A DNA stretch of 57,458 nucleotides from a virus (taxonomy: Duplodnaviria; Caudoviricetes), in the IMG/VR virus record IMGVR_UViG_3300025418_000002, positions 1 to 57,458 of that record, one strand, 5' to 3'. Every line of letters begins with the position of its first letter. Within the stretch, counting starts at the first letter, position 1. Positions 1 to 52,316 of this stretch are shown piece after piece. The position numbers and the translations under genes are program-made. Under the pieces are notes generated by a model. It was not told the DNA's origin. It was given only the letters and a program-made list of their open reading frames with translations, and did no database searches.

Positions 1-127
1 CAGGCATAGGACCAGGCATAGGACGGCGGCGAGGGATAACCCCAGGGGCGCCAATACCACCAGGCATCCTAGATACAGGAGGGGACCCAATAGGACCTCC
101 CATTGGCTGTCCAGTTATTGGATGAAA
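1..127. repeat. Terminal direct repeat, copy 1 (circularisation overlap)
   Basis: Bases 1-127 are identical to 57332-57458. 127 nt is a common assembler k-mer, and a reading frame runs in phase across the junction. Confidence 0.95.
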
Positions 128-1375
128 TCCTGTAGGTGTAACTCCACCACCCATTGGCGGCACTTGAGGCCCGCCCATTGGAGGACGCATTATTCCAGGG
201 CCGACACTTGGGGGTAATTGGCTAACTCCTGGAGGCATTGGCGCAGGAGCCGGACCAAAGGAGCCAGTAGGGACAGCGGAAGGAGCTGGCCCAAAAGATC
301 CAGTAGGAGTAGATCCAGGACCAGGCATAACGGCCACAGGAGGAGCCGCAACAGGCGCACCCATCATTGGGCCGCCGTTAAACTTACCTACACGGCCACC
401 ACTTTTAAACGGCATACCAGGAACACCACCTGGAGGAGGCGCACCAGGAGCCATCCCTGGGGGTGTTGGCGCAGGACCAGCAGCACCCATAGGCGGAGCC
501 GCAGGGGCGCCAACTGGTGCAGGCATGCCAGCACCCATTGGAATACCCATATCAGACAAAGGCTGATTACTTTTACTTGTTTCAATTTTTATGCTGATTT
601 CTGGGAAGTGTTTATTTTTACGGCCTTTACTTTTCTTTTCACCAGTTAATCCGCCGCCCCAAGCCTTGCCAAGGCGTCCAAGCGTCTCAGCCAACCGCGC
701 ACGTTTTCCTAACTTTCCGCCCTTTTCAGCCGCAGCATGAAGCTTCTTAGCTGGAATCTTCTCACCAGCAGGAACACCTAACTGCTTATGTAAGGCTCCC
801 TTATGCTTAATAGCTTTCTGAATCCACTTGCCGCCACCTTCAGCTTTGCCAGTAAGGGCTTCTTTCTTAACCATCTTCTTAATGAGGGATTTATCCTCAG
901 CAACATCAGGATGATCTGCCTTGCCGCCCTTCTTATAATGCTGGGCAGCGCCACGGACTGGCTTAATCTTTTCCGTTCCAATGCGGGCCTTATCCGTCTG
1001 CGTCTCTTTGTCAGATGGAACTTCGCCGCCATGCTTAAGGCCGCCAATGTGCTTCACGCCTTCGCGTGACTTATTGGCTTCCTTCATGTTCTTGTTGGCC
1101 ATGCCAACACCAATTTCTTTTTCTACAGCGCCGCCTGCCTTGCGGGCCTTTCTGTCAGCTCTGGCCTTGGAAGCTGCACCCGCAGCCTTACCAACAACCT
1201 TGCCACCCTTCTTATAATTCCGAGGGGAGATAGGACGCATGCCCGTCTTGGCTTCCGTATTCAACGGTTCAGCTGGGATCCAGTCTGAGCTATCTACCTT
1301 TTGATCCTTTTCGCCAGCAAGAGAACGGGCTTTCGCCTTCATCTTCTCGCGGGCCTCTTTGGCAATTTTATACAT
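1..1375 (-). CDS. 5' part of a 525-aa junction-spanning Lys/Gly/Pro-rich late protein with ~11 xxxGG motifs (joins 57331..57129)
   Basis: ATG at 1375 with GGAG upstream. Hand translation MYKIAKEAREKMKAKARSLAGEKDQKVDSSDWIPAEPLNTEAKTGMRPISPRNYKKGGKV... has no stop down to base 1 and is in frame with ORF 57129..57434 (1375+203=1578 nt). Confidence 0.9.
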   Translation of the reverse strand, partial: MYKIAKEAREKMKAKARSLAGEKDQKVDSSDWIPAEPLNTEAKTGMRPISPRNYKKGGKVVGKAAGAASKARADRKARKAGGAVEKEIGVGMANKNMKEANKSREGVKHIGGLKHGGEVPSDKETQTDKARIGTEKIKPVRGAAQHYKKGGKADHPDVAEDKSLIKKMVKKEALTGKAEGGGKWIQKAIKHKGALHKQLGVPAGEKIPAKKLHAAAEKGGKLGKRARLAETLGRLGKAWGGGLTGEKKSKGRKNKHFPEISIKIETSKSNQPLSDMGIPMGAGMPAPVGAPAAPPMGAAGPAPTPPGMAPGAPPPGGVPGMPFKSGGRVGKFNGGPMMGAPVAAPPVAVMPGPGSTPTGSFGPAPSAVPTGSFGPAPAPMPPGVSQLPPSVGPGIMRPPMGGPQVPPMGGGVTPTGFHPITGQPMGGPIGSPPVSRMPGGIGAPGVIPRRRPMPGPMP

Positions 1376-1485: not shown

Positions 1486-1665
1486 ATGGAGCATTTCACT
1501 CAATATGACGCCGAGTGCCTTATAGAGTCTATCCACACAAAAATAGGCGAGCTTATTCTTGTTTTAGGGTTAGACCTAGAAAAAAATAAAGATGCAGAAA
1601 TCATTATTAACGAATTAAACATGCTTGTTGGTGACATTAAAGGTTATACCATTCCACCAACATAA
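1486..1665 (+). CDS. Small hypothetical protein, antisense to the late operon
   Basis: AT-rich ORF MEHFTQYDAE... with a G-rich RBS; overlaps the 3' end of the 675-aa gene. Confidence 0.45.
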   Translation: MEHFTQYDAECLIESIHTKIGELILVLGLDLEKNKDAEIIINELNMLVGDIKGYTIPPT

Positions 1666-3671
1666 TACCCCCATCCTTTTTTATTTTTTTCAAGATAGCT
1701 CATAATATTATCAAGCCATTCTTGGTCCGCCTTTTGAACAGGCGTCTGAGTCATTAACGCTTGCTGATACATTGTAGGCGTCATAGGGACCATTCTTCCT
1801 GATTTCTTTTCAAGATATTCTGGCTTTATGTTCTTATACCAATTTGGGAACATTAACCGAGCAGGAACTTGATGCTCAAATCCTCCAGCATATCCAATAT
1901 TTCCGGGTAACTGCCCCCCGTATGTTTCATGTATATGCTCTGGATCAACTAAAATTTTTCCCTTAGGGTCTAATCTTGATAAAGAATAACCACTTGCCAA
2001 ATGTTCCCCGCTTATAAGATTAGGGTCCATTGCAGCAACTCTAGCTGCTCCAACATCTGGGAACCCACCTTTTATCATAGTGGATCTATCTAGGGCTTTT
2101 GCAAATTCAGATGAAGCTGTTCCAGGGCGACTTGCTAGAAACTTTTCTGATTCTTTCCAATTTTCAAAACCTGGCCACTCACCAGCTTTGTCACTTACTT
2201 TTCCAGAAACAAAATCATTAAGCTTCTTTAATGCAGATGTATCAAGATTTAAGTTTGGAGCTTGCCTTAACAAACTTTGAGCAATCATATGGGAAGAATC
2301 CATACTAGGAATACCCATAAGAGTGTGGGCCATATAAACAGGAACATCTTCATCAGGTAATTGGGACTGTATTTTTTCTAACATTTGTTTGGCTGTTGCT
2401 GGGCGAGATGCCCAAGGAGAAGGAGCAAACCTAGACCTCTGATAATTACCTCCACCTTGAAGCAAAACAGGCTCCGCTAATGGAACGCCATTAATTTCAT
2501 GCAAAATCATTTCAGCTTCAGTTCTATCTCCTAAGGCAGGAGCAACATAGGCTCCCTCTTTATATAAATCCTCTGGGGTCAGAACTTTCTTAGGCCGCAA
2601 TAATCCTGTTGGAGTAGCCACATATTCAATTTCACTTAATGGTTTTCCAAAGTTCGAAACTTGCAATTCCGAAGAAAGATTCGGGTCTCGTGAAATAATA
2701 TCAGAAGCTTTGACAACTGAAGGCTTTAATCCTTTTACAATATTTAACGCCTTTGCTATTGGTCCAGCTTCAGCATCTTCTGGCATAAGAGCAGCGGCGC
2801 CAACCGCAGCCGCCTTCGCAGCCTTTCCTGGAAGACCAAGAGCTGATAACGCAGCAGTAGTTGGGTCCCCCTCACGCAATCCAACCGCAACATCTCTTGC
2901 CGCAGCAATAGGAGCAGCCGGCGTAAAGTAAGGAGCTATCTCTGAAGCAGCTTGGAGGGCTGGCTGAATAACGTCAGTAGTTCCCTTTGGATATGTGCCA
3001 AGAGGAAGACGCGAATGTGTTAAAGGTTCCTCAATTGACATAGGCGCAAATTCAACCGCGCCGCTTACACCTTTATGGTGCGTAGCGCCTTCCCGCGCAG
3101 CAACTTCATTGGCTGTTTTAATAGCAGCCTCAATGTCGTCAGGAGTCCCGCCGCCTTGCATAACCTGTCTTCCAACTTCAGGAAGGTAATGTGTCGGAAA
3201 CCCATCCTCTAATACTGGCCCACCATCCGCCCGCTTCAAAACAGGCGCAGCAGCAAAGCTCCAGGCAATCAACCGACGAAAGAAAGCGCCGGAATCATCA
3301 TCACCTAAATCATGCTGATAAGGAATGCCGCCGCCAAGAGCTCTTTCGTCTCTGCCATCATCATCAGTATGGCGAAAATCCATGACAGGAACCTCTTTAA
3401 TTCCTAGCTCTTTTGACGCCTCAGCTCTGTGTCTGCCGTCTTGGATATTGTCTTTATACAGCTTCAAAGGACCAATATGATGACCATGCTTAATATGCTT
3501 CTTGAAGCCACGGATAATGGACCTATCCCCTTCATCCATTTCCATCTCTTGAGTCTCTCCAAGAAACTCGCCCGGAGAAATATTTTTCAGCTTTGCTTTT
3601 CCAGCCTTCAACTCAAGCTTGGCTTCCTTTGGCATGGCTAATGGATATTTAAGTTTCTTCTTAGCCATCAT
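1644..3671 (-). CDS. 675-aa multidomain late protein with an N-terminal ParB/Srx-like domain and xxxGG-delimited segments
   Basis: IGPLKLYKDNIQDGRHRAEASKELGIKEVPV is ParB-like (DGxHR). Contains RALGGG, RADGGPV, MQGGG and a terminal YYVGGMV. Start overlaps the portal stop. Confidence 0.7.
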   Translation of the reverse strand: MMAKKKLKYPLAMPKEAKLELKAGKAKLKNISPGEFLGETQEMEMDEGDRSIIRGFKKHIKHGHHIGPLKLYKDNIQDGRHRAEASKELGIKEVPVMDFRHTDDDGRDERALGGGIPYQHDLGDDDSGAFFRRLIAWSFAAAPVLKRADGGPVLEDGFPTHYLPEVGRQVMQGGGTPDDIEAAIKTANEVAAREGATHHKGVSGAVEFAPMSIEEPLTHSRLPLGTYPKGTTDVIQPALQAASEIAPYFTPAAPIAAARDVAVGLREGDPTTAALSALGLPGKAAKAAAVGAAALMPEDAEAGPIAKALNIVKGLKPSVVKASDIISRDPNLSSELQVSNFGKPLSEIEYVATPTGLLRPKKVLTPEDLYKEGAYVAPALGDRTEAEMILHEINGVPLAEPVLLQGGGNYQRSRFAPSPWASRPATAKQMLEKIQSQLPDEDVPVYMAHTLMGIPSMDSSHMIAQSLLRQAPNLNLDTSALKKLNDFVSGKVSDKAGEWPGFENWKESEKFLASRPGTASSEFAKALDRSTMIKGGFPDVGAARVAAMDPNLISGEHLASGYSLSRLDPKGKILVDPEHIHETYGGQLPGNIGYAGGFEHQVPARLMFPNWYKNIKPEYLEKKSGRMVPMTPTMYQQALMTQTPVQKADQEWLDNIMSYLEKNKKGWGYYVGGMV

Positions 3672-9855: not shown

Positions 9856-10161
9856 TTACGCAAATTCTGATTCTATTTCTTTTGTTGGGTGTGTCGCTCT
9901 ATGAACTGCTGCTTTCCCCAAGGGGGTGTCCGCCAGCATCCCCAGAGCATCCATATAAGTTGCCAAAATAGCTTGTTCCTCGGCACGTTTATTTGCATCC
10001 TGTTTTCTAAGGGCTATCACTTTCTTGATGATTTTAGGGTCAAAGCCTGTTGATTTTGCTTCCGAATATATTTCTTTAATGTCTTCGGCAATGGCGGCTT
10101 TTTCTTCTTCAAGCTTTTCTATTCTCTCGACAAAGGCTTTCAATTGATTGTTCGCAGTCAT
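9856..10161 (-). CDS. gapR: GapR-family (DUF2312) nucleoid-associated protein
   Basis: [48 protein letters not shown]...[15 protein letters not shown] is the GapR signature. Confidence 0.92.
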
Positions 10162-24604: not shown

Positions 24605-25024
24605 ATGATTGATATTGAAACAAAAAACAAAATAACAAAAATGTGGGAAGAAGGATTTACAGGAGGGGAGATTGCTTCACTTTTGAAAATAACAAGGAAT
24701 ACTGTGATGGGATTCCTTTACAGGGTGAAGAAAGGTGGAAGGGTATTTGAAAGAACACAAATTGAAAAGCCACCAGCTGAAAAAACAAAAAAAGTTGCAC
24801 TAAAAAAATATACAAACAAAGAAATAACATTTAGTTCAGAAGATGAAACAATGGAATTTAAGAATATAAGGCTGTTTGATTTAAGCCTTAACACTTGCCG
24901 TTACATTGTTTCAGAAATTGATGGAATTGATACTTTGTATTGCGGGAATGAAACAACAAAAAGACCTTATTGCCAGCACCACCACAGAATTTGCTACAAA
25001 AGAACGCCGTTAATAAAAGTATGA
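24605..25024 (+). CDS. gcrA: GcrA-family cell-cycle transcription regulator
   Basis: N-terminal W.EG.TG.EIA..L.ITRNTVMG.LYR HTH; C-terminal L.DL...TCRY.V......YCG.....PYC..H...Y zinc domain. Confidence 0.88.
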   Translation: MIDIETKNKITKMWEEGFTGGEIASLLKITRNTVMGFLYRVKKGGRVFERTQIEKPPAEKTKKVALKKYTNKEITFSSEDETMEFKNIRLFDLSLNTCRYIVSEIDGIDTLYCGNETTKRPYCQHHHRICYKRTPLIKV

Positions 25025-29266: not shown

Positions 29267-32200
29267 TTAGCGCCCCATTAACTTGTCAGTTATGCCATTA
29301 CCAAAGTTCTTATCAATATATTCTCTTACAGTTTGACCATTTGAATATTTCCCATTTGGACCAAACTTCCTAAGGTCTTCAATTGCTCTTGGATTAACTG
29401 TCGAGAGAATAGCCCTATCAGCATATTTTTGCGGCGGGTTTAACTCTCTAAACGCATTTTCTGCGCCTTTAATTGTTTGGTATTTTGCCGCATATTTTTC
29501 CATGAAAGTAAGTTTGTCTTGCTCATATTTTGCAGCTTCTTTTAATCCAGCCGTAATACGCTGGAATCCAAGTTGGGTATTTTCCATGCCTGGATTTGCC
29601 GCAATAGAACGCTCAACAATAAATCCTGGCTCATGTCCAAGACCTTGCGCAGTAGCAAATCCTAGTCGCGTTGTATCTTTTGCTAACGTCTCTGCCGCAG
29701 CTACGTTGCTTGGGTCAAAGAGAGGCTTGCCGCCAATCATGGCGACAATGCCATTGATGTCTTTTGCAATTTGAGTCCGTTGCGCAGCATAAGGACCCCA
29801 CTCCAACCATCCCTCACTAGGAATGTTTTTGGATTGGTTTTCCATTTCATCAATGCGGTAAAGTTGATTGTAAGAAGCGTTTGCAAGCGCCCTTTGCTTA
29901 TCAACCTCTGTCTTTGATGACTCTATTTCCTTTTCCAATGCCCCAGGCGTCATTGCAATATTGTAAGCGCCTGTAGGGGGTTGCATTGTGGATGGGATGT
30001 CTGTTGTTGCTTTCCAATTAGCTGCGGAGCCAATTTGATCTTTGCCAATTGGCTTCACCTCTGTTGGTGGAGCCTCTATTGGTTTTTCTCCACCAACTGC
30101 TGTTGGAACTTCATTTGGGTGAGGAGCATTAGAAAGCGGCCTACCTTCAACATCAGAAATTGGCGTTGGGATTTGATTTGGATCATCCTTACGGTTGATG
30201 GTCCAACCAACATTTGGAATCCATTTTTTCTCATAGAGCTCACTAAGAGCTTTTTTAGTTTCAGCTTCCACAAACTTTTGTTCAGCGCCAAGCTTGCCAG
30301 TTCGGGCTCCAACCTCACCTGTTTCAGCACGAGTTTTAGCGGCTTCTTCAGCAGTTTTAAGAGCCTCTTGTCCAATTTTCTTAGTTTCAGCAGAAATTTT
30401 TGGAACTTCCATATAAGAAGCTGCGCCTGCTCCAAGTCCTTTTAATAAAGCGGGAGCAAAGAAGCGGCTTTTAGACTCAGACATTGCACCTAAGCCAGAA
30501 AGCAATGGAACAATAAACCGTTCACTGGTTAAAAAGTCTAATGCCTTCTCCCCTACACCTTCAGGGGCTGTTCCTCTAAGGAATCCAGAAATGCCTTCAC
30601 CTTGTTGCGGTGCTTCAGTTGCAGAAGATGGTGGGGAAATACCAGCCCCCTTGACTGTTGTAGCCATCATGCTGAGCTGTTCCGGCGTCATTTCGCTTAA
30701 ATCAGGCATACCTGCGCCAGCAAGGCCTAAGGCCTTAGGAACATAATCACGGGTCTCTTGCGGAAGAAGAGACATTACATCTCCACCTGGGCCAGCCTTA
30801 TCCAAGGCTTTCTGAACACGCCCAGGGCCAGCATTGTAAGCGGCTAAAGCTAATTCAGGAGTTCCAAATCTTTTTAACTGAGCATCATAGTAAGCTTTAC
30901 CGAGGGCCTTGTTATAGCCTTCATCACTACGAACCCGCTCTGGGTCATATTCTAAGCCAGCAAGTTTAGCAGCCTCCGGGGCGGTTGAAGGCATAATTTG
31001 AGCAATGCCTTCCGCACCTTTAGGAGACGTTAGAACACGACCCTTCTTATCAAATTGGCTACGGCCTGACTCGGCTCCTAACAAACCTTTTTCAAATATA
31101 TCATCATCTGAAACATCATCATCAGGGCCACCATCTTTATATGCGGCGCGAGGAACTGAACCGCCGTCTTTTAGAAGCAATAATGGACCAAGAGCAGCAA
31201 GACCCTCACCAATGCTACTTAACAGTCCACTTCCGGCAGAAGCAGCAGACCCAAGGCCAGCCATCAAGGAATCACCAAGACCGGCACTTGTGGCGCCAGC
31301 CGCCCCACTATCCCCTATAACGCCGGGAATGCTAAACATTCCCTGTCCAAGATTTGCGCTTTTAGCGGCGTCTGAAGCAAGGCCAGAAAGCTTGCCACCA
31401 GTAAGTGAGTCAAGTCCCTTTAATTCACCAAGCGCAGACTTGCCCTGACCATATAAATCAGAAAGAGCACTTAGGCCGGACTTCCCTGAGCTTGTTGGTG
31501 ATGAAAATGGCAGTGGAGACATAGCAGCCATAGTAGGAACATTAGAAGCCTTTGTTGGCTTGATATTCAAATAACCAATGCCGCCATAAAGACCTTCTGA
31601 TGGATCATATTGACTTGATTGACCAGTCCCACCATCAGCAAAGCCACCTCGTGCATAATCACCTGATCCCGTTACACCACCACCAAGTCTTTCTTCAGAA
31701 CCATTAATTGCGCCACCTGATGCAGCCAACGTAGTCCCAAAAAATGAAAGTGGAACTTGTTGGGTTTGTGACCCATATTGATTTGTGCTTTGAGTTTGCC
31801 CGTATAATGGTCCAAGCTGAGAAGCAATATTTGCAGCATATTGGCCAACCTGAAATGGGAAAGCCTGAGACATAAGATATTGGTTGTAAAGTGCTTGCAA
31901 CCCTGCTTGAGCCGTCTGCTGTTCAGTCCCACCTGCACCCATAAGAGCCTGGGCAGCTTGAATTTGAGCTGTTTGTGCGCCAGCACCCAACCCACCCATA
32001 AGTTGTGCGGCTTGAAGCTTTCTAGTTAAATCAGCTTGCTGTTGCGTCTGTTGCTGCTCATAAGCTTGGCGACCTAATGTTCCAATATTGGCATATTGAT
32101 CACCAGCCTGAAGAAGACGCGAAAGGTCTGCCTGCTGAAGCTGACCAGCCGTAGAACCAAATTGACCCATAGCCTGGCTGGCAGCCAATTGACGCGCACG

Positions 32201-32950
32201 GTCTGCTTGGCTGGCTTGCTGAGACTGAAATGCAGCGTTAAGGGCCTGCCCATAGCCTTGCTGCATAATGTCGCCGTAAGTCTTGCCGCTAGACATTTCT
32301 TGCTGCGCAGCCAACGTAGCAGCGGCAATACCTGCCCTATCTCCACCAAAAGCCCCTTGCTGAATAGCCTGACCAGTTTGGCCAGCCATTGCCTGCTCTT
32401 GCTGTTGCTTTAAGAAGGCCATTGTCGGGTCAGCGACATCCTTCAAATATGGAGACATAAAACTCTGGATCTGCTGCTGACCAACAGGAGTGGTTAATTG
32501 AGATGCTTGTTGAGCAAGACCAAAACCAGAAGTTAGATACGGATTGGCAGCTTGATACCCCCCAGGGGCTGTGGCGGCCTGTTGTGTATATTGTGCCGCT
32601 GTGTTGTAATATGGCTGAGACTTTTCAGCTATATTAAAATCAGATACATTTTGACCACCAGCTCCTGCCGCCATCCCTAGCGCCGCTTGGTAGGCCGGCT
32701 GTGCTGTGTTTTGCGCCTGTCTAAGGTCCCATATTGACTGTAATTGATCTTGATTAAGCTGCGCCACAAAAGACGAAGGGTCTGAACTATATGGCTGAAA
32801 CTGCCTGTAGGCAGCCGACATAGCTATAGATCCAGCAGGATTGTAATAACCCTCTGCGACACCAGGAAGTGCAGTAACAGTCTGGTTTCCACCTTGAGTA
32901 GTATTTTGAATAGTTGGAGCAGAATTGGACGAAGAACCAAAATTACACAT
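29267..32950 (-). CDS. Large ejection protein with an SLT lytic transglycosylase domain
   Basis: Q/A/G-rich N-terminus; AESG...SPKGAEGIAQIMPSTA...ALAAYNAGPGRV...ETRDYV; several xxxGG motifs precede the enzyme domain. Confidence 0.85.
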   Translation of the reverse strand: MCNFGSSSNSAPTIQNTTQGGNQTVTALPGVAEGYYNPAGSIAMSAAYRQFQPYSSDPSSFVAQLNQDQLQSIWDLRQAQNTAQPAYQAALGMAAGAGGQNVSDFNIAEKSQPYYNTAAQYTQQAATAPGGYQAANPYLTSGFGLAQQASQLTTPVGQQQIQSFMSPYLKDVADPTMAFLKQQQEQAMAGQTGQAIQQGAFGGDRAGIAAATLAAQQEMSSGKTYGDIMQQGYGQALNAAFQSQQASQADRARQLAASQAMGQFGSTAGQLQQADLSRLLQAGDQYANIGTLGRQAYEQQQTQQQADLTRKLQAAQLMGGLGAGAQTAQIQAAQALMGAGGTEQQTAQAGLQALYNQYLMSQAFPFQVGQYAANIASQLGPLYGQTQSTNQYGSQTQQVPLSFFGTTLAASGGAINGSEERLGGGVTGSGDYARGGFADGGTGQSSQYDPSEGLYGGIGYLNIKPTKASNVPTMAAMSPLPFSSPTSSGKSGLSALSDLYGQGKSALGELKGLDSLTGGKLSGLASDAAKSANLGQGMFSIPGVIGDSGAAGATSAGLGDSLMAGLGSAASAGSGLLSSIGEGLAALGPLLLLKDGGSVPRAAYKDGGPDDDVSDDDIFEKGLLGAESGRSQFDKKGRVLTSPKGAEGIAQIMPSTAPEAAKLAGLEYDPERVRSDEGYNKALGKAYYDAQLKRFGTPELALAAYNAGPGRVQKALDKAGPGGDVMSLLPQETRDYVPKALGLAGAGMPDLSEMTPEQLSMMATTVKGAGISPPSSATEAPQQGEGISGFLRGTAPEGVGEKALDFLTSERFIVPLLSGLGAMSESKSRFFAPALLKGLGAGAASYMEVPKISAETKKIGQEALKTAEEAAKTRAETGEVGARTGKLGAEQKFVEAETKKALSELYEKKWIPNVGWTINRKDDPNQIPTPISDVEGRPLSNAPHPNEVPTAVGGEKPIEAPPTEVKPIGKDQIGSAANWKATTDIPSTMQPPTGAYNIAMTPGALEKEIESSKTEVDKQRALANASYNQLYRIDEMENQSKNIPSEGWLEWGPYAAQRTQIAKDINGIVAMIGGKPLFDPSNVAAAETLAKDTTRLGFATAQGLGHEPGFIVERSIAANPGMENTQLGFQRITAGLKEAAKYEQDKLTFMEKYAAKYQTIKGAENAFRELNPPQKYADRAILSTVNPRAIEDLRKFGPNGKYSNGQTVREYIDKNFGNGITDKLMGR

Positions 32951-32973: not shown

Positions 32974-33474
32974 CTATATGCTGTTTGCAGCATTTTCTTT
33001 CCACTCGCCAGTTTTGGCTCCATATGTATACGTCACACCTGATGGTTTACCAAATAATCTGTTGTAAAGCTTTATTTTGCTTTCGGTTCTTTGATTAGAA
33101 AGAATGCCTATCATAAGCGTCATTTTGAGCTCATCAGCTGTCTTTTTACTGAACTCACACAACTTACGAGCCCTCCCGCCTTTTGCGCTTCTGAAATCAG
33201 GATGCACAAAGACGGTTTTTTCTTCTATTATAGACGTATCAGAATACCATAAATTTCCTATCCTTAACAATACAAAGCCCTCTAAAGGCCCGCCAACTGG
33301 ACCAATCACGCCAATAATTCCCCTATCCTGATGAAGAGAAGGGACAACATCATATAGAATTTTATCAATATTAGGCTCAGACAGTCCGTTTTCATCACAA
33401 ACCATTAAAGCCATTTTCATTATTTCATGCAGGTCTTCTGGACCTCCAACTCTTACTTTTACTTCCTCAGCCAT
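32974..33474 (-). CDS. GNAT-fold acetyltransferase-like protein
   Basis: VRVG..EDL..I, EGFVLL, E...FVHPDFRS...ARKL, LY.R. Confidence 0.7.
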   Translation of the reverse strand: MAEEVKVRVGGPEDLHEIMKMALMVCDENGLSEPNIDKILYDVVPSLHQDRGIIGVIGPVGGPLEGFVLLRIGNLWYSDTSIIEEKTVFVHPDFRSAKGGRARKLCEFSKKTADELKMTLMIGILSNQRTESKIKLYNRLFGKPSGVTYTYGAKTGEWKENAANSI

Positions 33475-33487
33475 AACATTCCCTTCC

Positions 33488-33994
33488 TTAGTCCCGTTTA
33501 GGCCCCGGCAAATTTTTTAATGTCTCAACAGTTTTCGCCCTATATTTTTTTATCAAATCATCAAAAATACGGTGCCCTTGTTCTAGGATACCTTGACCTA
33601 CTCTTTTTACAGTGGAAGGGGACAAGACATATTCACCACCAGCCGCAATGATCTCAGTTGCTGGTTCAGGACCTAAAATTTGGCGCCCAAACATTTTGTT
33701 CAAAATCCTAAACCCAGCCATTGTATTACCTTCCCCCAAAGCAGAAACAATGTCTGCGGGAATGACATAAGCACCAGAAGGAACATGCATAGGAAGATGG
33801 TCAGTGCGGCCAGCAACAGGGCTATGAATAGGACCAACAAATGTTTTTGCTTCTGAAGCGCCACCTTCGGCATAAGATTGAAATGCCTCCTTTAATGAAG
33901 CGGCAACTGCCTGTTTATGCGGATGACCCGAACTAATCATCTCAGATATATTATATGAAATTGTTTTTGGGGATTTTCCCTTTTTAAGAGGCAT
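33488..33994 (-). CDS. Basic N-terminal module, YAEGG, then a tandem 'GEYV' domain (candidate processing factor)
   Basis: MPLKKGKSPKTISYNISEM..SG.P.KQAVA; GPIHSPVAGRTDHLP; repeats SGAYVIPADIVSALGEG....G.RI and GGEYVLSPSTVKRVGQG....G.RI. Confidence 0.75.
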   Translation of the reverse strand: MPLKKGKSPKTISYNISEMISSGHPHKQAVAASLKEAFQSYAEGGASEAKTFVGPIHSPVAGRTDHLPMHVPSGAYVIPADIVSALGEGNTMAGFRILNKMFGRQILGPEPATEIIAAGGEYVLSPSTVKRVGQGILEQGHRIFDDLIKKYRAKTVETLKNLPGPKRD

Positions 33995-34004
33995 AGTTAA
34001 ATCC

Positions 34005-34370
34005 TTAGTTTGTCGTATAACAGACAACTACTGTCTGGCCTGAACCTGGGCTGATAACGAGCCCACTAGAAAAATTAAATCCTATTTCAAAAATTCCAAC
34101 CGTAGCTGGTATTATAACAATTTGGTTGTCTGATATGGCTCCGCTCGGAGAAATGGCATTATATATTGTTCCAGCCGACCCAGAAACTAAAACAGATATT
34201 CTGACAATATAACCACTTCCTGTATAAAGAAGTGTTGTTGATCCTGATATTGGAGCAGATGTAACTTGTCCGCGTGTTTTATTGACGTAATCTTGCCAAG
34301 ACTTATTAAGGTTATTAAGGGCAATAACGCCATTTTTTTGTGTTGTAAGAATGTCGTCTAGAGTAGCCAC
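34005..34370 (-). CDS. Hypothetical structural protein
   Basis: Small beta-rich ORF coupled to the upstream stop. Confidence 0.7.
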   Translation of the reverse strand: MATLDDILTTQKNGVIALNNLNKSWQDYVNKTRGQVTSAPISGSTTLLYTGSGYIVRISVLVSGSAGTIYNAISPSGAISDNQIVIIPATVGIFEIGFNFSSGLVISPGSGQTVVVCYTTN

Positions 34371-36964
34371 TAAAACTTCCCGTCTGGTTGAAGTCTGTAT
34401 CTAATAGCGCCGAGACGCCAAAATGACCCAACATCTCCCGGCGCCGTTTCAAGCTTAATAGACATAAGCCTTCCACGGAACCTTGGTGTGACAAAGGTTG
34501 TATTTACGTTAATGTTAAATGGATATTCTTTAGGGGTCTGCTCTGGATAGTCGGTGACATAAAATGTCATGACAAGATCAGCAGCATTTGACCCACCATA
34601 ATACCCATACTTCATATCAGGCCAAACTTGGTCAACAAAGACTTTGTATTCAGCGTCAGAAATTTGGAAATATCCAGTTTGGAAGCTGGCATAAAGTGGC
34701 TGACCATCTGCATCAGGAGAAGTTTCATGCTGGTAAATATAATTTGTCCCACTGGCCCCAATTGGAGGCCCAAGAACAGACTGATTTATCCAAGCAGTTC
34801 TGGATAAAGTCCCAAAGTCCCACTGGTCAAGAACGGCATTATATTTAACGTAATTGCTAATTTCTCCGTTTGACCCTTTGGTGGCATAATACCAAGATAT
34901 TTCGCCAAATTGAGAATTAACAGCAATTCTAATTTTATTTAATGCCGTTTCACTTGTATCAAAGTCTTGGAATATAACGTCCCAAACTGGACACCGAATA
35001 ACTTCAACGCCAGTCCCGGATAACCTGTAAAACTGGCTTTGGCTCATCCAATACACAACACCATTCATAGACGCTGCGGCCTTGCGGGAAATAAGTCCGC
35101 AGCCATTGCCTATTTCATTAAATTGGTAAACATACGGAGGGCCAACATACTGCATAGCCCAAATACCTAAATCAGTCCAAATCAGACCCTGTTGCGGCCC
35201 CTGAATACAACCAACAACTTTAGAGCCTTTAGGAAGTCTGTAAGACCCTGCCTGATTTGTTACTGTAGCAACCCAACTTCCATAATTATTAACATCACAC
35301 CAGCGGATAAGTAGAGGGTCTTGAATCCCATTAAAAGTTGACCCCCATGCAACAATTTGACGTTGAGGCATAGCCACAAACATCCCATCATTTACCATAG
35401 GGCCATTAGACATAACTGAGGCTACTGAATTCCCGCCAGTTGGAGACCAATTATAAATTGGACCGCCAATAGGGCAGGCAACAAGAATTTCACCCCAATT
35501 ATCAAGCGTCCAGTCTACCGCAGCAATTGGAGATCCCGTTACAGCAACAGTTGCTTGTCCAGGAGTTCCCGTTCCATATAAACCATCCCCATAATATCCA
35601 TTACCGTATCCACCCCCAGAAGGGGTTGGGCCTGGAGTTTTTAAGTATTCGTAATAAGCATTCCCATTATTTAAATAAGATTGATTTATAAAAGCAGAAC
35701 CCTGTTGAACAGATTCTGTCATTGACATAAATATGGAGCCATTGGAATTTTGAAAAGTAACTGTTTTATACACATTATCAATTGTTAATATTTTAGCATA
35801 TTGACCTGATGGAGTATTAAATTGAGATGCAGGACCTGTATAATTTGAAATTAATATATGGTCATTTACGTTAAAATTATATACGCCAGAATAGGTAAAT
35901 GTTCCTGTTGTTGTCCCATTTCCAGATATAGAAATAATAACAGAAGAATTAGGAATTGATTTTAATGATATTTTAAAGTTATTTGTATCAATAATAGAAG
36001 ATACAATGTAGTTTCCGTAAAGGGTTGTTGTGCCAAAATTTAACGGAACAATAATTGGGAATGTGTCCCCTACAGAATAACCATTATTAGGTAGCGTTAC
36101 TGTTGCAGTTTGGTCTCCTATTGCAAATGTAAAAATAGGAACACTTGCCGCCGTCCCAGGCGGAACTGTTGTAGTTGCGGCAACGGGACTCCCAATTATG
36201 TTTTTTGCATTTATAAAATAGCTATTAGCGCCATCAATGTATGTGCAAGGATAGCTGCCAAATAATATTAGGCCGCCAACACTAATTTGTGTTTTTATGT
36301 AAACGGAGTCAAAATTAGATACATTAGATCCAGCGTTATTTATCCGAACCTGTGAACTTCCGGCTGTTGTAACAGCGTCTGGAGGTGAATTTGTGCTGAA
36401 TGTAACGCGGGGAGTTATAATATTAAATGAGGTGTTTGCATTTGCAGCAATGTAACCAAGTCCATCACCAGAACTTAAGGCTCCAATTGGAGATCCGTCT
36501 GGATTAGACACAGACGCATGAGAACCGCTTAATGTGTATTGAATATAATTAGGACCAGAGGCAGCTACTACCGTAGAAGTTCCTACCGGCGTATTATAGG
36601 CATTAACACTAATTCCAGAAATAATAACATTTGATCCAACTTGAAATAATGAACTTCCACTGTAGGTTATGGTCGCCAATGTTCCATTACATGAAGCCGT
36701 TAAAATAGAAGCAATAGTTGTCTGTGATCCAACGCCAAGATAAGCCAAGGCATTTGTATCTTCCCAGGCCCATAAAGCCCTAACGGTAGAATACAACTGA
36801 CCCCTAAACCACTGGGTCCACCCACCAAGCTTTTGAACAAGCCCTAATCCCTGTTTGTCAGGGACAAATCTAACAAGGTTTGTGTAGGAAATGGCGGCTT
36901 CGTTTAAAGCCAGCGTCCTATTCTGGTCAACTCCAGGGATTAACTTTAATGTAGTGTGCGACAT
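34370..36964 (-). CDS. Tail nozzle / head-closure beta-propeller protein with an inserted beta-rich region
   Basis: 864 aa; QKLGGW, WTLDNWGE.LVA, DPLLIRWCD, LIWTD..IWAMQYVGPPYV, GTLSRTAW, RFRGR, WRLG..RY...PDG. Confidence 0.8.
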   Translation of the reverse strand: MSHTTLKLIPGVDQNRTLALNEAAISYTNLVRFVPDKQGLGLVQKLGGWTQWFRGQLYSTVRALWAWEDTNALAYLGVGSQTTIASILTASCNGTLATITYSGSSLFQVGSNVIISGISVNAYNTPVGTSTVVAASGPNYIQYTLSGSHASVSNPDGSPIGALSSGDGLGYIAANANTSFNIITPRVTFSTNSPPDAVTTAGSSQVRINNAGSNVSNFDSVYIKTQISVGGLILFGSYPCTYIDGANSYFINAKNIIGSPVAATTTVPPGTAASVPIFTFAIGDQTATVTLPNNGYSVGDTFPIIVPLNFGTTTLYGNYIVSSIIDTNNFKISLKSIPNSSVIISISGNGTTTGTFTYSGVYNFNVNDHILISNYTGPASQFNTPSGQYAKILTIDNVYKTVTFQNSNGSIFMSMTESVQQGSAFINQSYLNNGNAYYEYLKTPGPTPSGGGYGNGYYGDGLYGTGTPGQATVAVTGSPIAAVDWTLDNWGEILVACPIGGPIYNWSPTGGNSVASVMSNGPMVNDGMFVAMPQRQIVAWGSTFNGIQDPLLIRWCDVNNYGSWVATVTNQAGSYRLPKGSKVVGCIQGPQQGLIWTDLGIWAMQYVGPPYVYQFNEIGNGCGLISRKAAASMNGVVYWMSQSQFYRLSGTGVEVIRCPVWDVIFQDFDTSETALNKIRIAVNSQFGEISWYYATKGSNGEISNYVKYNAVLDQWDFGTLSRTAWINQSVLGPPIGASGTNYIYQHETSPDADGQPLYASFQTGYFQISDAEYKVFVDQVWPDMKYGYYGGSNAADLVMTFYVTDYPEQTPKEYPFNINVNTTFVTPRFRGRLMSIKLETAPGDVGSFWRLGAIRYRLQPDGKF

Positions 36965-39684: not shown

Positions 39685-41547
39685 TTAACTTTCTACGTGT
39701 TTTTTAAAGAGACGGGTGAAAGCATTATCCACAGTCAGCATATAACCTTTGTTAATATGCCGCAGTGTATCTTGCCATATAGTGTCCCACATGTGAACAG
39801 CATAGCTGCCATTTAGTGTCGGCAAATATGCGTCGGCGCATTCCTCTCTCAATATTGATTCATCATAAAAATCAAATGGAAGGAACTTTTCAGTCTCTAT
39901 TAAAGTAAGCAAATCTTTGTTTTCTTTGTATATTTCCACAGGAAGACCAACAATATGCCAAGCCCACTCCCCACTCTTTAGGGCCTCAGGAAGTCTTTCA
40001 ATCCAAATCCTAATAAATTCAGATTTTGGAGCAGCCAAAATTGTTGCCGCCGGCATAGATTCATCTTTAAACTTTGTGCCAGTAACGTCTCCAACAAACC
40101 CAGCCAACACACAGTCATTGTCCATGAAGTCATTAAGAGGCTTTGTCAGGAAACAATCTGTATCCAAATAGATACCGCCCATTTCATAAAGCTTCTGAAG
40201 CCTAACAACATCAGACTGATATTGGGCCCACCCGTCTAATGAAACGCCCTCAAGCTCCGTTGGTGGTTCAATATGAACCATCTCAACATACTGCTTCATA
40301 TTGTCCCAGTTTTCGTTACTCTCCGGCTCTTTATTGTAATAAAAATAAATCTTATCCGGCTTTTGAACATCAAACGCAGTTTTTACAGCCAAATAGTTAA
40401 GGTAGCTGAAGTCACGGGATTTCTCTCCGTAGAAATACATAAAATGGATTATGTTAGGGATTTTGGGCTTCGGCTTAAAGCTTTCCAATATAAACTTTAA
40501 GTTATCCCTAAGCCTGTCAATTCTAGGGGACTTCTCAACAGAAATCTTTGCTTGCTCTAAAGCCTCATCCCTCAACCCTAAATGCCAAGCGGATATGCTA
40601 GCCAAGTCATGAGGCCAATGCTCCCAAACCGCCGGATCACATGTGTAAACTAATTCCCTCTCCTTAATTTGAAGAGCTCTCATGCAACTTGCATAACATT
40701 CCGCCCATCTGGACTGGCGGTAATACAGCATAGCCAATTCACACCATGGCTCCCTTGTATTAGGAGCTTCAGCCGCAGCCCGCTGGAACCATCTTTCACA
40801 TTCATAAGCATTACCCATTTCCGCGTAACACCTAGCCATAACCCGCATGGCGTAGCAGCGTTCATTCTCCCAAGCAGAATTCGGCATTTCCAAATACTTC
40901 TTGCAGGCGTCAATTGACTCCTGCCACCGAGCATTAAAAGAAAGCTCTCTGGCATAGTAAAAAGCGTTTCTGGAGCATAAAGGATCTTCCTTAACCGACA
41001 GCTCCAGCAAGTCCATATACTGGCCACGGCTCTTAGTTGGATCAGGATGATGGGTTGCAATCAGCCTATCAGTATAGGCGTAAACCTCATTAATCCGCTT
41101 ATCAAAAACAGGATATTCATGGCAGGGATGGTGCCAAAAGTAGCCGTGACGGGCATGAATTTTCTCATACCGAAACTTAATGCCACAGCCCCAGTCAAAG
41201 AAATAACTAAGGCGGGTTGTAACACCATTAATCCAAACCCTCTCAATTTCCTCACGCCACCCAGGCTCCAACATCTCATCAATATCTAAACTAATACAAA
41301 CGTCCATTTCTTTAGGAATAAGGGCAATGGCTGCATTTCTGGCATGGTCAAACCGCCAAGGCGTGATGCAGATTTGATGGACTGTAACGCCGTTAGCCTT
41401 ACACTCCTCAATTGTGCTATCAGTGCTGCCAGTGTCAGCAACCATAACAAGGTCAGCCTCACGGCAGGAATCAGCAAACCTTTTAATAAAATGCGCCTCA
41501 TTCTTGCTGATGGCATAGACGCAGATTTTTAGCTTTCTATCTTCCAT
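39685..41547 (-). CDS. GT2 glycosyltransferase, TPR repeats and a GT32-like (DxD) glycosyltransferase in one fusion
   Basis: ICVYAISKNE, VADTGSTD, FDHARNAA, SLDIDE; TPR helices (FYYARE, AMRVMARCY); KIPNIIHF, SDVVRL..LY..GGIYLDTD, YAVHMW. Confidence 0.9.
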   Translation of the reverse strand: MEDRKLKICVYAISKNEAHFIKRFADSCREADLVMVADTGSTDSTIEECKANGVTVHQICITPWRFDHARNAAIALIPKEMDVCISLDIDEMLEPGWREEIERVWINGVTTRLSYFFDWGCGIKFRYEKIHARHGYFWHHPCHEYPVFDKRINEVYAYTDRLIATHHPDPTKSRGQYMDLLELSVKEDPLCSRNAFYYARELSFNARWQESIDACKKYLEMPNSAWENERCYAMRVMARCYAEMGNAYECERWFQRAAAEAPNTREPWCELAMLYYRQSRWAECYASCMRALQIKERELVYTCDPAVWEHWPHDLASISAWHLGLRDEALEQAKISVEKSPRIDRLRDNLKFILESFKPKPKIPNIIHFMYFYGEKSRDFSYLNYLAVKTAFDVQKPDKIYFYYNKEPESNENWDNMKQYVEMVHIEPPTELEGVSLDGWAQYQSDVVRLQKLYEMGGIYLDTDCFLTKPLNDFMDNDCVLAGFVGDVTGTKFKDESMPAATILAAPKSEFIRIWIERLPEALKSGEWAWHIVGLPVEIYKENKDLLTLIETEKFLPFDFYDESILREECADAYLPTLNGSYAVHMWDTIWQDTLRHINKGYMLTVDNAFTRLFKKHVES

Positions 41548-42131: not shown

Positions 42132-42364
42132 TGATTTTCTCCGTTAATAATAGCCGTAGAGGTTTCCCTGTCTATTTGCAAAAAACCATCACAGGCAATG
42201 TTATAATCATCACCAGTTTGCTCATCCCAAGAAGGAACATTTATCTTAACGTGTTTTGCAAGATATTCTTTTAACCCATTCTCGAAGACGCGCCAAACAT
42301 GATCTTTAGTCCCGCGCCCTGGCTGTCCCTTTGTCTTATTATAGCGTATTTGGTAGTGGTTCAT
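42128..42364 (-). CDS. Hypothetical protein
   Basis: IRYNKTKGQPGRGT.DHVWRVFENG; ATGA-coupled. Confidence 0.75.
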   Translation of the reverse strand: MNHYQIRYNKTKGQPGRGTKDHVWRVFENGLKEYLAKHVKINVPSWDEQTGDDYNIACDGFLQIDRETSTAIINGENQ

Positions 42365-42996
42365 ATAACCTCTACCTCTATGCCACTATGAGGATTATCA
42401 ATTAAAGAAATGTTAAAATGGACAAAACGAAAAGGATCACTACTGCCATTTTTAGTAAAACTGTGCGGTAGCCAAGCATTGGTCAAAACAAGCATTCCAG
42501 GCTCCGGCCTAAAATGAAAAGCATTTGATGCATACGTCACATTAGATATGTCATCCTCAGAAATTCCAAGCTGAGTTTTGCCTGGTCTAGGGTCATGAAA
42601 TGTGGCTGCGCATGACCCTTCCGGCGTGTCTAAAAAATAAAATCCAACAATTTGAACGCCATTAGGATGAATGTGTTGATCCATTTGGCTGAATTTATAA
42701 TGCTCCTGGCACCACATTTCCGTAAAAAATGCAGCTTTTCCTTTTACGTTATAACCCTGCTCTATTAAAATATTAAGGGCCGTAACAGCAGTATAAGAAC
42801 AAAAATCCTGTATGGATGGGTCTTGTGAAATATCCCCTGTCATTTTTACAGGGTAAATATCATTTAACTCATGATCTACAGATAATAATGCGGCATTAGA
42901 AGATTTGCGAACAGAATCAAGAAACTCTGGCTTACTAATTGAATAAACTGTGGTTGGGAAACAATGTATATTGTTTAAAATATCTTCAGACATCAC
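42361..42996 (-). CDS. 2OG-Fe(II) oxygenase (TIGR02466-like)
   Basis: FPT.V, MW, HIHP, GFYFL..P, F.DPRP, P.PG.LV...WLPH, R..HFN. Confidence 0.85.
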   Translation of the reverse strand: MMSEDILNNIHCFPTTVYSISKPEFLDSVRKSSNAALLSVDHELNDIYPVKMTGDISQDPSIQDFCSYTAVTALNILIEQGYNVKGKAAFFTEMWCQEHYKFSQMDQHIHPNGVQIVGFYFLDTPEGSCAATFHDPRPGKTQLGISEDDISNVTYASNAFHFRPEPGMLVLTNAWLPHSFTKNGSSDPFRFVHFNISLIDNPHSGIEVEVI

Positions 42997-51981: not shown

Positions 51982-52251
51982 TTAACAATCCCATTTTCTC
52001 AAAGATTTATTTATCCGACTATTTGGGTCTGCGGCTGCCGCTGAACCCGTAAGCTTTTTCTTCATACCTGTCATTCTAGCACAGAATGAACTTCTCCGCG
52101 CAGCAGATGCTTCACTTTTTGCAGCCTGTTTCTTAGAAACTGGCGGCTTAAGATTGTGGCCCTCAGCCTTAGCAGAAGCCCTCCCCTTGGCGTTTAATCC
52201 ACCCTCAGGGTTTTTACCTTCTTTTCTTTGCCATGCAGGAGATTTTGCCAT
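51982..52251 (-). CDS. Basic head-module protein (DUF6321-like)
   Basis: AWQRKEGKNPEGGLNAKGRAS...RRSSFCARM.G...DPNSRINKSLRKWDC; GAGG RBS. Confidence 0.75.
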   Translation of the reverse strand: MAKSPAWQRKEGKNPEGGLNAKGRASAKAEGHNLKPPVSKKQAAKSEASAARRSSFCARMTGMKKKLTGSAAAADPNSRINKSLRKWDC

Positions 52252-52316
52252 TTTATCCTCGCAATATATAGGCGGCGGGGCTTTGGACACCCCGCCGAAG
52301 CACCTACTAATTTAAA

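Follow-up and report, generated by a model that had tools for sequence, protein, structure and literature searches.

P0001 is the 168-residue product of a gene on the minus strand (33488–33994) of the IMG/VR virus record IMGVR_UViG_3300025418_000002 (Duplodnaviria; Caudoviricetes), and the window, by which we mean the whole stretch of DNA analysed, is that complete virus record of 57,458 bp with its terminal repeats. Among described systems, the closest to P0001 are the polyvalent proteins, the C-terminal ends of siphophage tape-measure proteins (TMPs), the crAss001 cargo protein gp45 and the T7 proteins gp13 and gp14. The ART, InPase, GNAT and methyltransferase classes were predicted to be packaged and injected by Iyer et al. 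in 2017, in the passages of their paper on polyvalent proteins that deal with these enzymes (PMC5512222). The TMP of phage lambda, gpH, is cleaved to gpH* and gpHC, an event described in 1974, and the sections of PMC12617516 devoted to gpH state that what catalyses this cut, and exactly where it falls, is unknown. According to those sections, gpHC is a fragment found at the lambda tail tip and includes the segment of gpH that carries a G-E-[FY]-V motif, hereafter the GE[FY]V unit; this unit directly follows the glycine-rich stretch in which the cut falls, and gpH residues ~690–817, the unit included, are unresolved (PMC12617516). For gp45 of crAss001, the part of PMC10172136 on this protein describes a compact domain placed on the portal and another segment placed in the tail.

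P0001 was singled out by a first-pass annotation, made from the letters of the sequence, as a stand-alone tandem domain protein and a candidate protease or reader of a GG motif. We describe it here as a protein of two constant ends, which in its relatives enclose a variable cargo, with a C-terminal domain formed by duplication of a GE[FY]V unit. We put at about even the chance that P0001 is a carrier delivered with the virion, its two ends serving as handles for incorporation or ejection.

Architecture of P0001 and its relatives

P0001 opens with a basic helical hairpin, the N module (residues 1–40; 33875–33994), which is defined by a match to phrog_2423 over residues 1–32 (E 1.1e-10) and by the AlphaFold2 model, where helices are predicted at residues 9–21 and 26–39; the computed isoelectric point (pI) of the module is 9.9. 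It is followed by a linker (residues 41–49; 33848–33874) that starts with YAEGG (33860–33874) and is predicted to be disordered yet is conserved: residues 42–48 have predicted local distance difference test (pLDDT) values below 50 and are undocked in the full-length model (mean pLDDT 85.6, from a 30-sequence alignment), and G44 and G45 are each at least 90% conserved. The first-pass annotation had described exactly this arrangement, a basic module joined through its own GG site. The remainder of the protein is the C domain, which when folded alone gives a pLDDT of 93.5 and a predicted template modelling score (pTM) of 0.84 (39 sequences). It comprises repeat 1 (residues 50–105; 33680–33847), with GRTD at 62–65, S84 and GEGNT at 87–91, and repeat 2 (residues 106–168; 33491–33679), with AGGEYV at 118–123, G140-H141, D145, R152 and an LPGP tail, all of these features being encoded on the minus strand. 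The strings that the annotation had quoted are all present in the translation, namely YAEGG at residues 41–45, GPIHSPVAGRTDHLPMHVPSGAYVIPADIVSALGEG at 54–89 and IIAAGGEYVLSPSTVKRVGQG at 115–135.

The family is large. There are 2652 near-length relatives among 2720 candidates, and 2554 cluster representatives (50% identity) at E ≤ 0.001, with 147 at E ≤ 1e-30; the source names among the matches listed are all 'hypothetical protein'. Architecture was read from two samples, the first being the best 150 cluster representatives, of which 112 are longer than 220 residues, and the second 106 new long forms (392–2000 residues) drawn from 435 longer-form matches among 8000 candidates. All 150 representatives have the C module, at their end in 147, and 112 have the N module, at their start in 107; in the long forms the C module is terminal in 106/106 and the N module initial in 105/106, beginning within the first five residues in 107/112 representatives and 105/106 long forms. 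Pooled over 256 relatives, the C module is terminal in 253 and the N module initial in 212.

The region between the modules is variable in content. ART-PolyVal lies there in 4 of 23 long representatives, the other 19 being without a Pfam family, and phrog_16028 is found in 5 of the 23. Eleven further long forms gave ART (3), InPase (3), GNAT (2) and Methyltransf_23 (1, a borderline assignment at 27.1 bits against a cut-off of 27), and 3 of them are without a Pfam family. In some relatives (P0452, P0407) a GNAT domain is seen inside the N-cargo-C protein. By these comparisons of sequence, P0001 is the cargo-less member of an N-module/cargo/C-module family. The architecture counts do not bear out the earlier suggestion of a free-standing reader, and of the 'stand-alone tandem domain' it is the tandem half that survives, through the duplication profile described below, and the stand-alone half that does not.

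The N module occurs in addition as a free-standing, very basic protein of 48–58 residues in Pseudomonas phage O4 (L147 3001–3147) and Burkholderia phage BCSR129 (L148 3001–3177), and these free proteins do not end in GG.

The C domain as a duplicated unit

Profiles of the two repeats were built from 103 non-redundant family sequences and aligned with hhalign at a probability of 96.9% (P 2e-10, 41 columns); the observed score of 48.4 is to be compared with a maximum of 23.4 among column shuffles, 0/100 of which reach it. The C domain is, far beyond chance, two copies of one GE[FY]V unit of ~45 residues, and in the AlphaFold2 prediction the order strand–strand–helix–helix occurs twice within it. 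It had been claimed that only one repeat keeps the glutamate, and indeed E121 of repeat 2 is Glu in 102/103 sequences and its equivalent in repeat 1 is Ser (69) or Ala (34). This asymmetry is half of a two-sided one, in which each repeat keeps residues of its own. In repeat 1, G62, R63 and D65 are invariant (103/103) and T64 is kept in 102/103, with equivalents that vary in repeat 2; fixed in repeat 2, besides E121, are H141 (99/103), D145 (101/103) and R152 (101/103).

Distant relatives are encoded by Synechococcus phage MinM2 (L001 5416–6300, 294 residues) and Pseudomonas phage vB_PaeM_USP_25 (L003 6908–7741, 278 residues), and in both a single unit keeps the S-D-D-I as well as the G-E-Y motif. 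Their genes lie upstream of giant open reading frames (ORFs), with annotated spans of ~8.4 kb in MinM2 and 14.7 kb in USP_25.

Database searches linked P0001 to no family of known function. Neither the whole protein nor its N module or C domain matches a Pfam or NCBIfam family, and the only PHROG matches, phrog_2423 and phrog_11341, are both labelled 'unknown function'; when 39 members were compared with Pfam at E ≤ 1, eight chance-level families were returned, none of them a peptidase. Searches of the Protein Data Bank were at chance level with a single sequence (best E 0.13, a cysteine synthase) and with the family profile A1 (best E 0.078, a phosphoribosyltransferase), the full-length model reached a best Foldseek E of 0.82, and in BFVD only uncharacterised phage proteins were matched. 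Three candidates were set aside. In a wide VIA search with the full-length model, the matches were confined to the N-terminal hairpin and were to generic helical hairpins (Z ≤5.5). A resemblance to the strand-helix arrangement of AbrB/SpoVT found no Pfam match at E ≤ 1 in the 39 members and no such chain in the structural matches listed. The crAss_CARG1 clusters were the nearest named ones in a language-model search (0.85), without backing from sequence or structure, there being no Pfam match to this family at E ≤ 1 in the 39 members and no crAss chain among the 50 structural matches listed.

The complementary invariant acidic residues kept by the two repeats favour a peptidase, either self-processing or acting in trans, with a composite site to which repeat 1 would contribute Asp65 and repeat 2 Glu121 together with His141. 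Such an enzyme would cut the [RK]AxGG joints, freeing the N module and the cargo of the relatives, and the TMP unit would likewise cut gpH to gpH* and gpHC. Consistent with this, AxGG marks module borders and is near-invariant within a linker predicted to be disordered, and no recognisable protease was found among 53 ORFs compared with Pfam and 41 compared with PHROGs. The position of the lambda unit, just after the glycine-rich cut region of gpH, would also fit, catalyst and site being given as unknown in the sections of PMC12617516 cited above. We nevertheless consider a peptidase unlikely. The search for one, which had been proposed as a check, returned no peptidase family in Pfam, NCBIfam or PHROGs and no solved fold of any kind among 48,161 chains, and the AxGG linker is undocked in the predicted full-length structure. 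Podoviruses of the T7 and P22 kinds are not known to use a maturation protease. Moreover, where PMC10038345 describes the cut in T5 pb2, it places it after Arg and not at GG.

Relationship to TMP C-termini

The strings of lambda gpH that the first-pass annotation gave are real: in the lambda gene H sequence, the C-terminal part of gpH has an aromatic-A-x-GG motif, then HRGEFVFTKEATSRIG, then a second motif Y-A-x-GG. Residues 116–138 of P0001 align with gpH 750–772, weakly, when single-sequence profiles are used (P 0.017, probability 2.7%). By tblastn, gpH 715–853 has matches in 1151 of 50,697 phage records, and conservation in many T1-like, phi80-like and Klebsiella phages is limited to gpH 745–785, at 75–90% identity, so that this segment behaves as a module. 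The database homologues of gpH 715–853 were 120 near-identical Escherichia coli prophage TMPs, unsuited to a diverse profile, and the TMP alignment used here consists of nine diverse C-termini, that of lambda and eight from phage records.

Against this alignment the whole C module scored an hhalign probability of 48% (P 1.8e-4) and repeat 2 alone 62.5% (P 7.3e-5, 22 columns), with repeat 1 falling in the same register (P 0.019). The score of repeat 2 was 29.0, and column shuffles had a mean of 10.6, a standard deviation of 2.6 and a maximum of 21.8, with 0/150 reaching the observed value. The comparison with TMP C-termini that had been called for thus yields a match at the level of a motif. 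As to the broader proposal of a C-terminal TMP module, the resemblance lies in exactly the register proposed, but it covers ~22 columns only, and a hidden Markov model (HMM) search of the lambda record gave no candidate. The TMP unit has no counterpart of GRTD, H141, D145 or R152. What the alignments suggest is that a short unit is probably common to P0001 and TMPs by descent, as distinct from homology of the whole domain.

GG motifs flank this unit on both sides. All nine TMPs have an aromatic-x-x-GG at a distance of exactly 16 residues upstream of G-E-[FV]-V and a [FY][AE]xGG 20–31 residues downstream; this arrangement suggests that the GG motifs are themselves part of the TMP unit. This bears on the peptidase, since a GG held at exactly 16 residues in 9/9 TMPs looks integral to the unit and not like a substrate, and the residues GRTD, H141, D145 and R152, missing from the TMP unit, also count against a catalytic site common to both. 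An extension of the same idea is that the GE[FY]V unit is a self-processing element, two units, whether fused or contributed by two TMP chains, forming one Asp/Glu site that would cut the neighbouring aromatic/Ala-x-GG joints. We think this quite improbable. If true, it would account for the cleavage of lambda gpH into gpH* and gpHC, the pairing of units could explain how six gpH chains give a three-fold C-terminal end, and injected enzymes would be released by the same chemistry from podophage polyproteins lacking a recognisable protease.

Distribution of the xGG motif

The xGG motif recurs throughout the family and in other proteins of this phage. The regions between modules contain 297 xGGx sites, with Ala at −2 in 138 (46.5%) against an Ala frequency of 11.6%, and [RK]AxGG joints separate modules and cargo in the relatives. 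In short members the P0001-type linker has xGG in 147/149, with Ala at −2 in 136 and RAEGG as the commonest form (61), and the distance from GG to GRTD is 15–16 residues in 118/147 (range 6–30). The motif is also present in four other proteins of the window: a 1227-residue protein with an SLT domain, a 900-residue protein, a portal-adjacent protein of 675 residues and a Lys/Gly/Pro-rich, scaffold-like protein. In the SLT protein the first site, [YF]xxGG, is kept in 12/12 non-redundant homologues and the second in 8/12, in gappy surroundings. The pattern of conservation indicates that the motif is real and under constraint. Within the SLT protein, the site GDY-x-R-GG-Y-x-x-GG, retained across the 12 homologues, resembles the double GG motif that precedes the GEFV unit of TMPs.

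The 675-residue protein is encoded just after the portal gene (1644–3671, minus strand) and has the joints RALGGG, KRADGG and VMQGGG and the end YYVGGMV. Its N-terminal DGRHR segment resembles, by eye, ParB-like nuclease domains, and no Pfam match supports this. The protein looks like a second polyvalent-type protein, one without the GE[FY]V module. The Lys/Gly/Pro-rich, low-complexity protein (2–1375, minus strand, running over the record end) carries YKKGG twice, FKSGG, RKAGG and KAEGGG and has no family match; its gene is placed between that of the portal-adjacent protein and those of the head, which makes a scaffold or internal protein a possibility.

The recurrence of the motif in exactly these virion-cassette proteins would suit a non-catalytic reader or assembly adaptor, in which the C domain binds the aromatic-x-x-GG of the SLT, 900-residue, 675-residue and scaffold-like proteins and chaperones or tethers them during assembly or ejection. 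The retention of the first SLT-protein site in every homologue despite its gappy surroundings, and the conserved gene order with motif-bearing proteins, fit such a role, and the invariant polar residues could form a groove that binds peptides. We hold this to be doubtful all the same, since no peptide-binding fold was recognised and the AxGG linker of P0001 itself is undocked in the predicted model. In TMPs, too, the motif flanks the unit within the same polypeptide, which could reflect descent of a repeat and not a ligand and its receptor. Co-folding of the C domain with residues 100–180 of the 675-residue protein, a stretch with three xGG joints, scored 0.02 against a mark of 0.32, in a run without controls, a result that favours neither binding nor its absence.

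Gene and neighbourhood

The P0001 gene is present in single copy in the virus record and has its stop codon at 33488–33490. The ATG at 33994 is its likely start, favoured because relatives begin M-P-L at residue 1 and because AAGGA lies ~8 nucleotides upstream of this codon; a longer TTG-started ORF (33488–34027) is unlikely to be the gene, given that relatives start at M-P-L. The predicted protein has a pI of 9.6, and its longest apolar run is 6 residues.

The window encodes the genes of a short-tailed phage, among them terminase, portal, major head protein, SU10-type adaptor and tail fibres, as well as a 246-residue tail protein and the 900-residue protein already mentioned. Upstream of P0001 on the same strand are a 121-residue protein without a Pfam, PHROG or NCBIfam match (34005–34370) and an 864-residue virion structural, nozzle-like protein (34370–36964; phrog_3287, E 2.7e-58). 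Downstream are a 166-residue GNAT-like protein (32974–33474), which has a weak match to Acetyltransf_7 (E 0.0054, below the Pfam cut-off), and then the 1227-residue internal-virion-type protein (29267–32950), with its SLT transglycosylase domain (E 3.6e-11) and YARGGFADGG/YKDGG motifs, these too on the minus strand. Scans of 41 ORFs against PHROGs and 53 against Pfam found no tail-tube, sheath or tape-measure family, apart from a sole TMP PHROG match made through the SLT region of the 1227-residue protein; this fits the earlier statement that the phage has no tape measure.

The gene order is conserved well beyond this phage. Of 130 related viral loci, 124 had an ORF with the C module, six being dropped because they had no plus-strand match that extended to query residue 150. 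A GNAT gene is found within 200 nucleotides downstream in 104/104 loci with at least 700 nucleotides of flank, including 22/22 long forms of 230–729 residues; the nozzle-like gene is upstream in 122/123, and a match to the 121-residue protein is within 500 nucleotides upstream in 104/123. In an annotated relative the order reads 'phage stabilization protein', a small ORF, the homologue, acetyltransferase and 'internal virion protein D'. Short and long forms thus occupy the same slot, and therefore cargo has been inserted into one orthologous gene of the tail/ejection cassette.

The linkage to the SLT-bearing internal protein, two genes downstream, allows a further reading, in which the GE[FY]V domain would, once ejected, act at the envelope; in the periplasm, beside the SLT transglycosylase, it would bind to peptidoglycan, to a membrane or to some conserved protein of the envelope, just as the tip end of a TMP is the first part to reach the envelope. 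It would agree with the basic character of P0001, and with the fact that the unit is common to the TMP C-terminal fragment which the tail-tip sections of PMC12617516 report as bound there. We rate it as very doubtful, given that no LysM, SH3, PG_binding or other wall-binding family was matched and that P0001 has no hydrophobic segment. The ART and methyltransferase cargo of the relatives, moreover, is directed to the cytoplasm, which implies passage beyond the periplasm.

Other genes of the window were noted in passing. A GapR-like DNA-binding protein (9856–10161, minus strand, E 4.8e-33) and a GcrA-like cell-cycle regulator (24605–25024, plus strand, E 5.3e-15) are encoded; GapR and GcrA are regulators of alphaproteobacteria, and from these two genes the host may be an alphaproteobacterium. 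The late-gene block holds a 620-residue protein with TPR and glycosyltransferase regions (39685–41547, minus strand; phrog_13126, E 3.4e-99) and a 2OG-Fe(II) oxygenase (42361–42996, minus strand), and a small basic DUF6321 protein is encoded near the head genes (51982–52290, minus strand, E 3.4e-20).

P0001 as a possible virion-delivered carrier

The position of the gene in a cassette of tail and ejection proteins leads us back to P0001 as a candidate carrier delivered with the virion, which would make it a polyvalent-type protein reduced to its two handles. The two ends would serve to get the protein into the virion and to place it so that it leaves before or together with the DNA, the variable middle of the relatives travelling with them as cargo. 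On the model of crAss001 gp45, the ends may anchor the protein at two separate points of the particle. The C domain would be the end facing the exit, as is suggested by the unit that it has in common with the tip-end fragment of TMPs, and would play the part of the homologous unit in the C-terminal fragment of siphophage TMPs. Since this phage has kept the handles alone, it is probable that they themselves serve a structural or ejection function here.

Several observations weigh against such a carrier. A place in the virion is deduced from gene position and fusions only, and P0001 itself has no cargo. It matches no known ejection-protein family in Pfam or PHROGs, and its C-domain model, compared with 48,161 chains, gave a best VIA Z of 2.9, a second-look Z of 3.2 and a best Foldseek E of 0.4. 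The similarity to TMPs spans 22 columns only, and the negative HMM search of the lambda record was made with the family profile A1. In phage O4 the gene for the free N module comes directly after the endolysin gene, beside the lysis genes, which a packaging signal does not predict. Finally, R63, D65, N90, E121, H141, D145 and R152 are near-invariant (each in at least 99/103), and neither this asymmetric polar set nor a near-invariant AxGG in a disordered linker is obviously needed by a passive handle; the invariant polar residues and the conservation of AxGG both would point to a specific site.

A search of the full-text literature returned no text pairing GEFV with tape measure and, among the matches listed, no relevant account of TMP autoproteolysis; taken together with Pfam, NCBIfam and PHROGs, no earlier account of either the N module or the C domain, or of the TMP link, was found. 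The rule of constant N module, cargo and constant C module offers a simple, testable grammar for how these podophages may load enzymes into their particles, and it suggests that foreign proteins could be loaded with the two modules as sufficient tags. A confident prediction without a match to any solved structure, the C domain contains a unit that links internal proteins of podophages with the part of TMPs that is least understood. Should the protease idea fail, identifying the ligand of the invariant Asp/Glu/His/Arg site would still shed light on both systems.

Comparison with known systems

T7 gp13 and gp14 offer a likeness of position, the P0001 gene being that of a small protein between tail-tubular/nozzle genes and a large SLT-bearing internal protein. 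The likeness does not extend further, in that P0001 has no match to an ejection-protein family and the fold predicted for its C domain is a mixed alpha/beta pseudo-dimer. T7 gp14, for comparison, is helical.

With lambda gpHC, P0001 has in common a unit of ~22–40 residues of the form h-h-x-x-G-E-[FY]-V-h-x(4)-h-x-x-h-G, the flanking aromatic-x-x-GG motifs and a location at the C-terminal end. The differences are that TMPs have one unit and P0001 two, fused and diverged, and that P0001 is without a coiled-coil ruler, a TMP Pfam domain or a tail tube to measure. At 168 residues it matches no TMP Pfam family, unlike lambda gpH, which matches TMP_2 and Tape_meas_lam_C; the GE[FY]V unit flanked by aromatic-x-x-GG is what P0001 does have of a TMP, and this at the level of motifs only.

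The polyvalent proteins resemble the family in its multi-domain relatives, which carry ART-PolyVal, InPase, GNAT and methyltransferase domains and are encoded among virion genes, as are the proteins treated in the corresponding passages of PMC5512222. The virion-gene context is present throughout (GNAT in 104/104 and nozzle-like gene in 122/123 informative loci). P0001 differs in having no effector domain, so that the presence of two or more domains, a feature of polyvalent proteins, is seen in the relatives and not in P0001. The family further differs in its fixed N and C modules, which match no Pfam family, and, going by the gene contexts given in those passages, in that the P0001 gene is in the tail/ejection cassette and not next to the portal or MuF. 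The terms 'tape measure', 'glycine' and 'linker' do not occur in the main text of PMC5512222. For a cargo protein with two ends, the precedent is crAss001 gp45 (C1), which, as portrayed in the part of PMC10172136 cited above, serves as a working model for P0001 and its relatives and not as kin.

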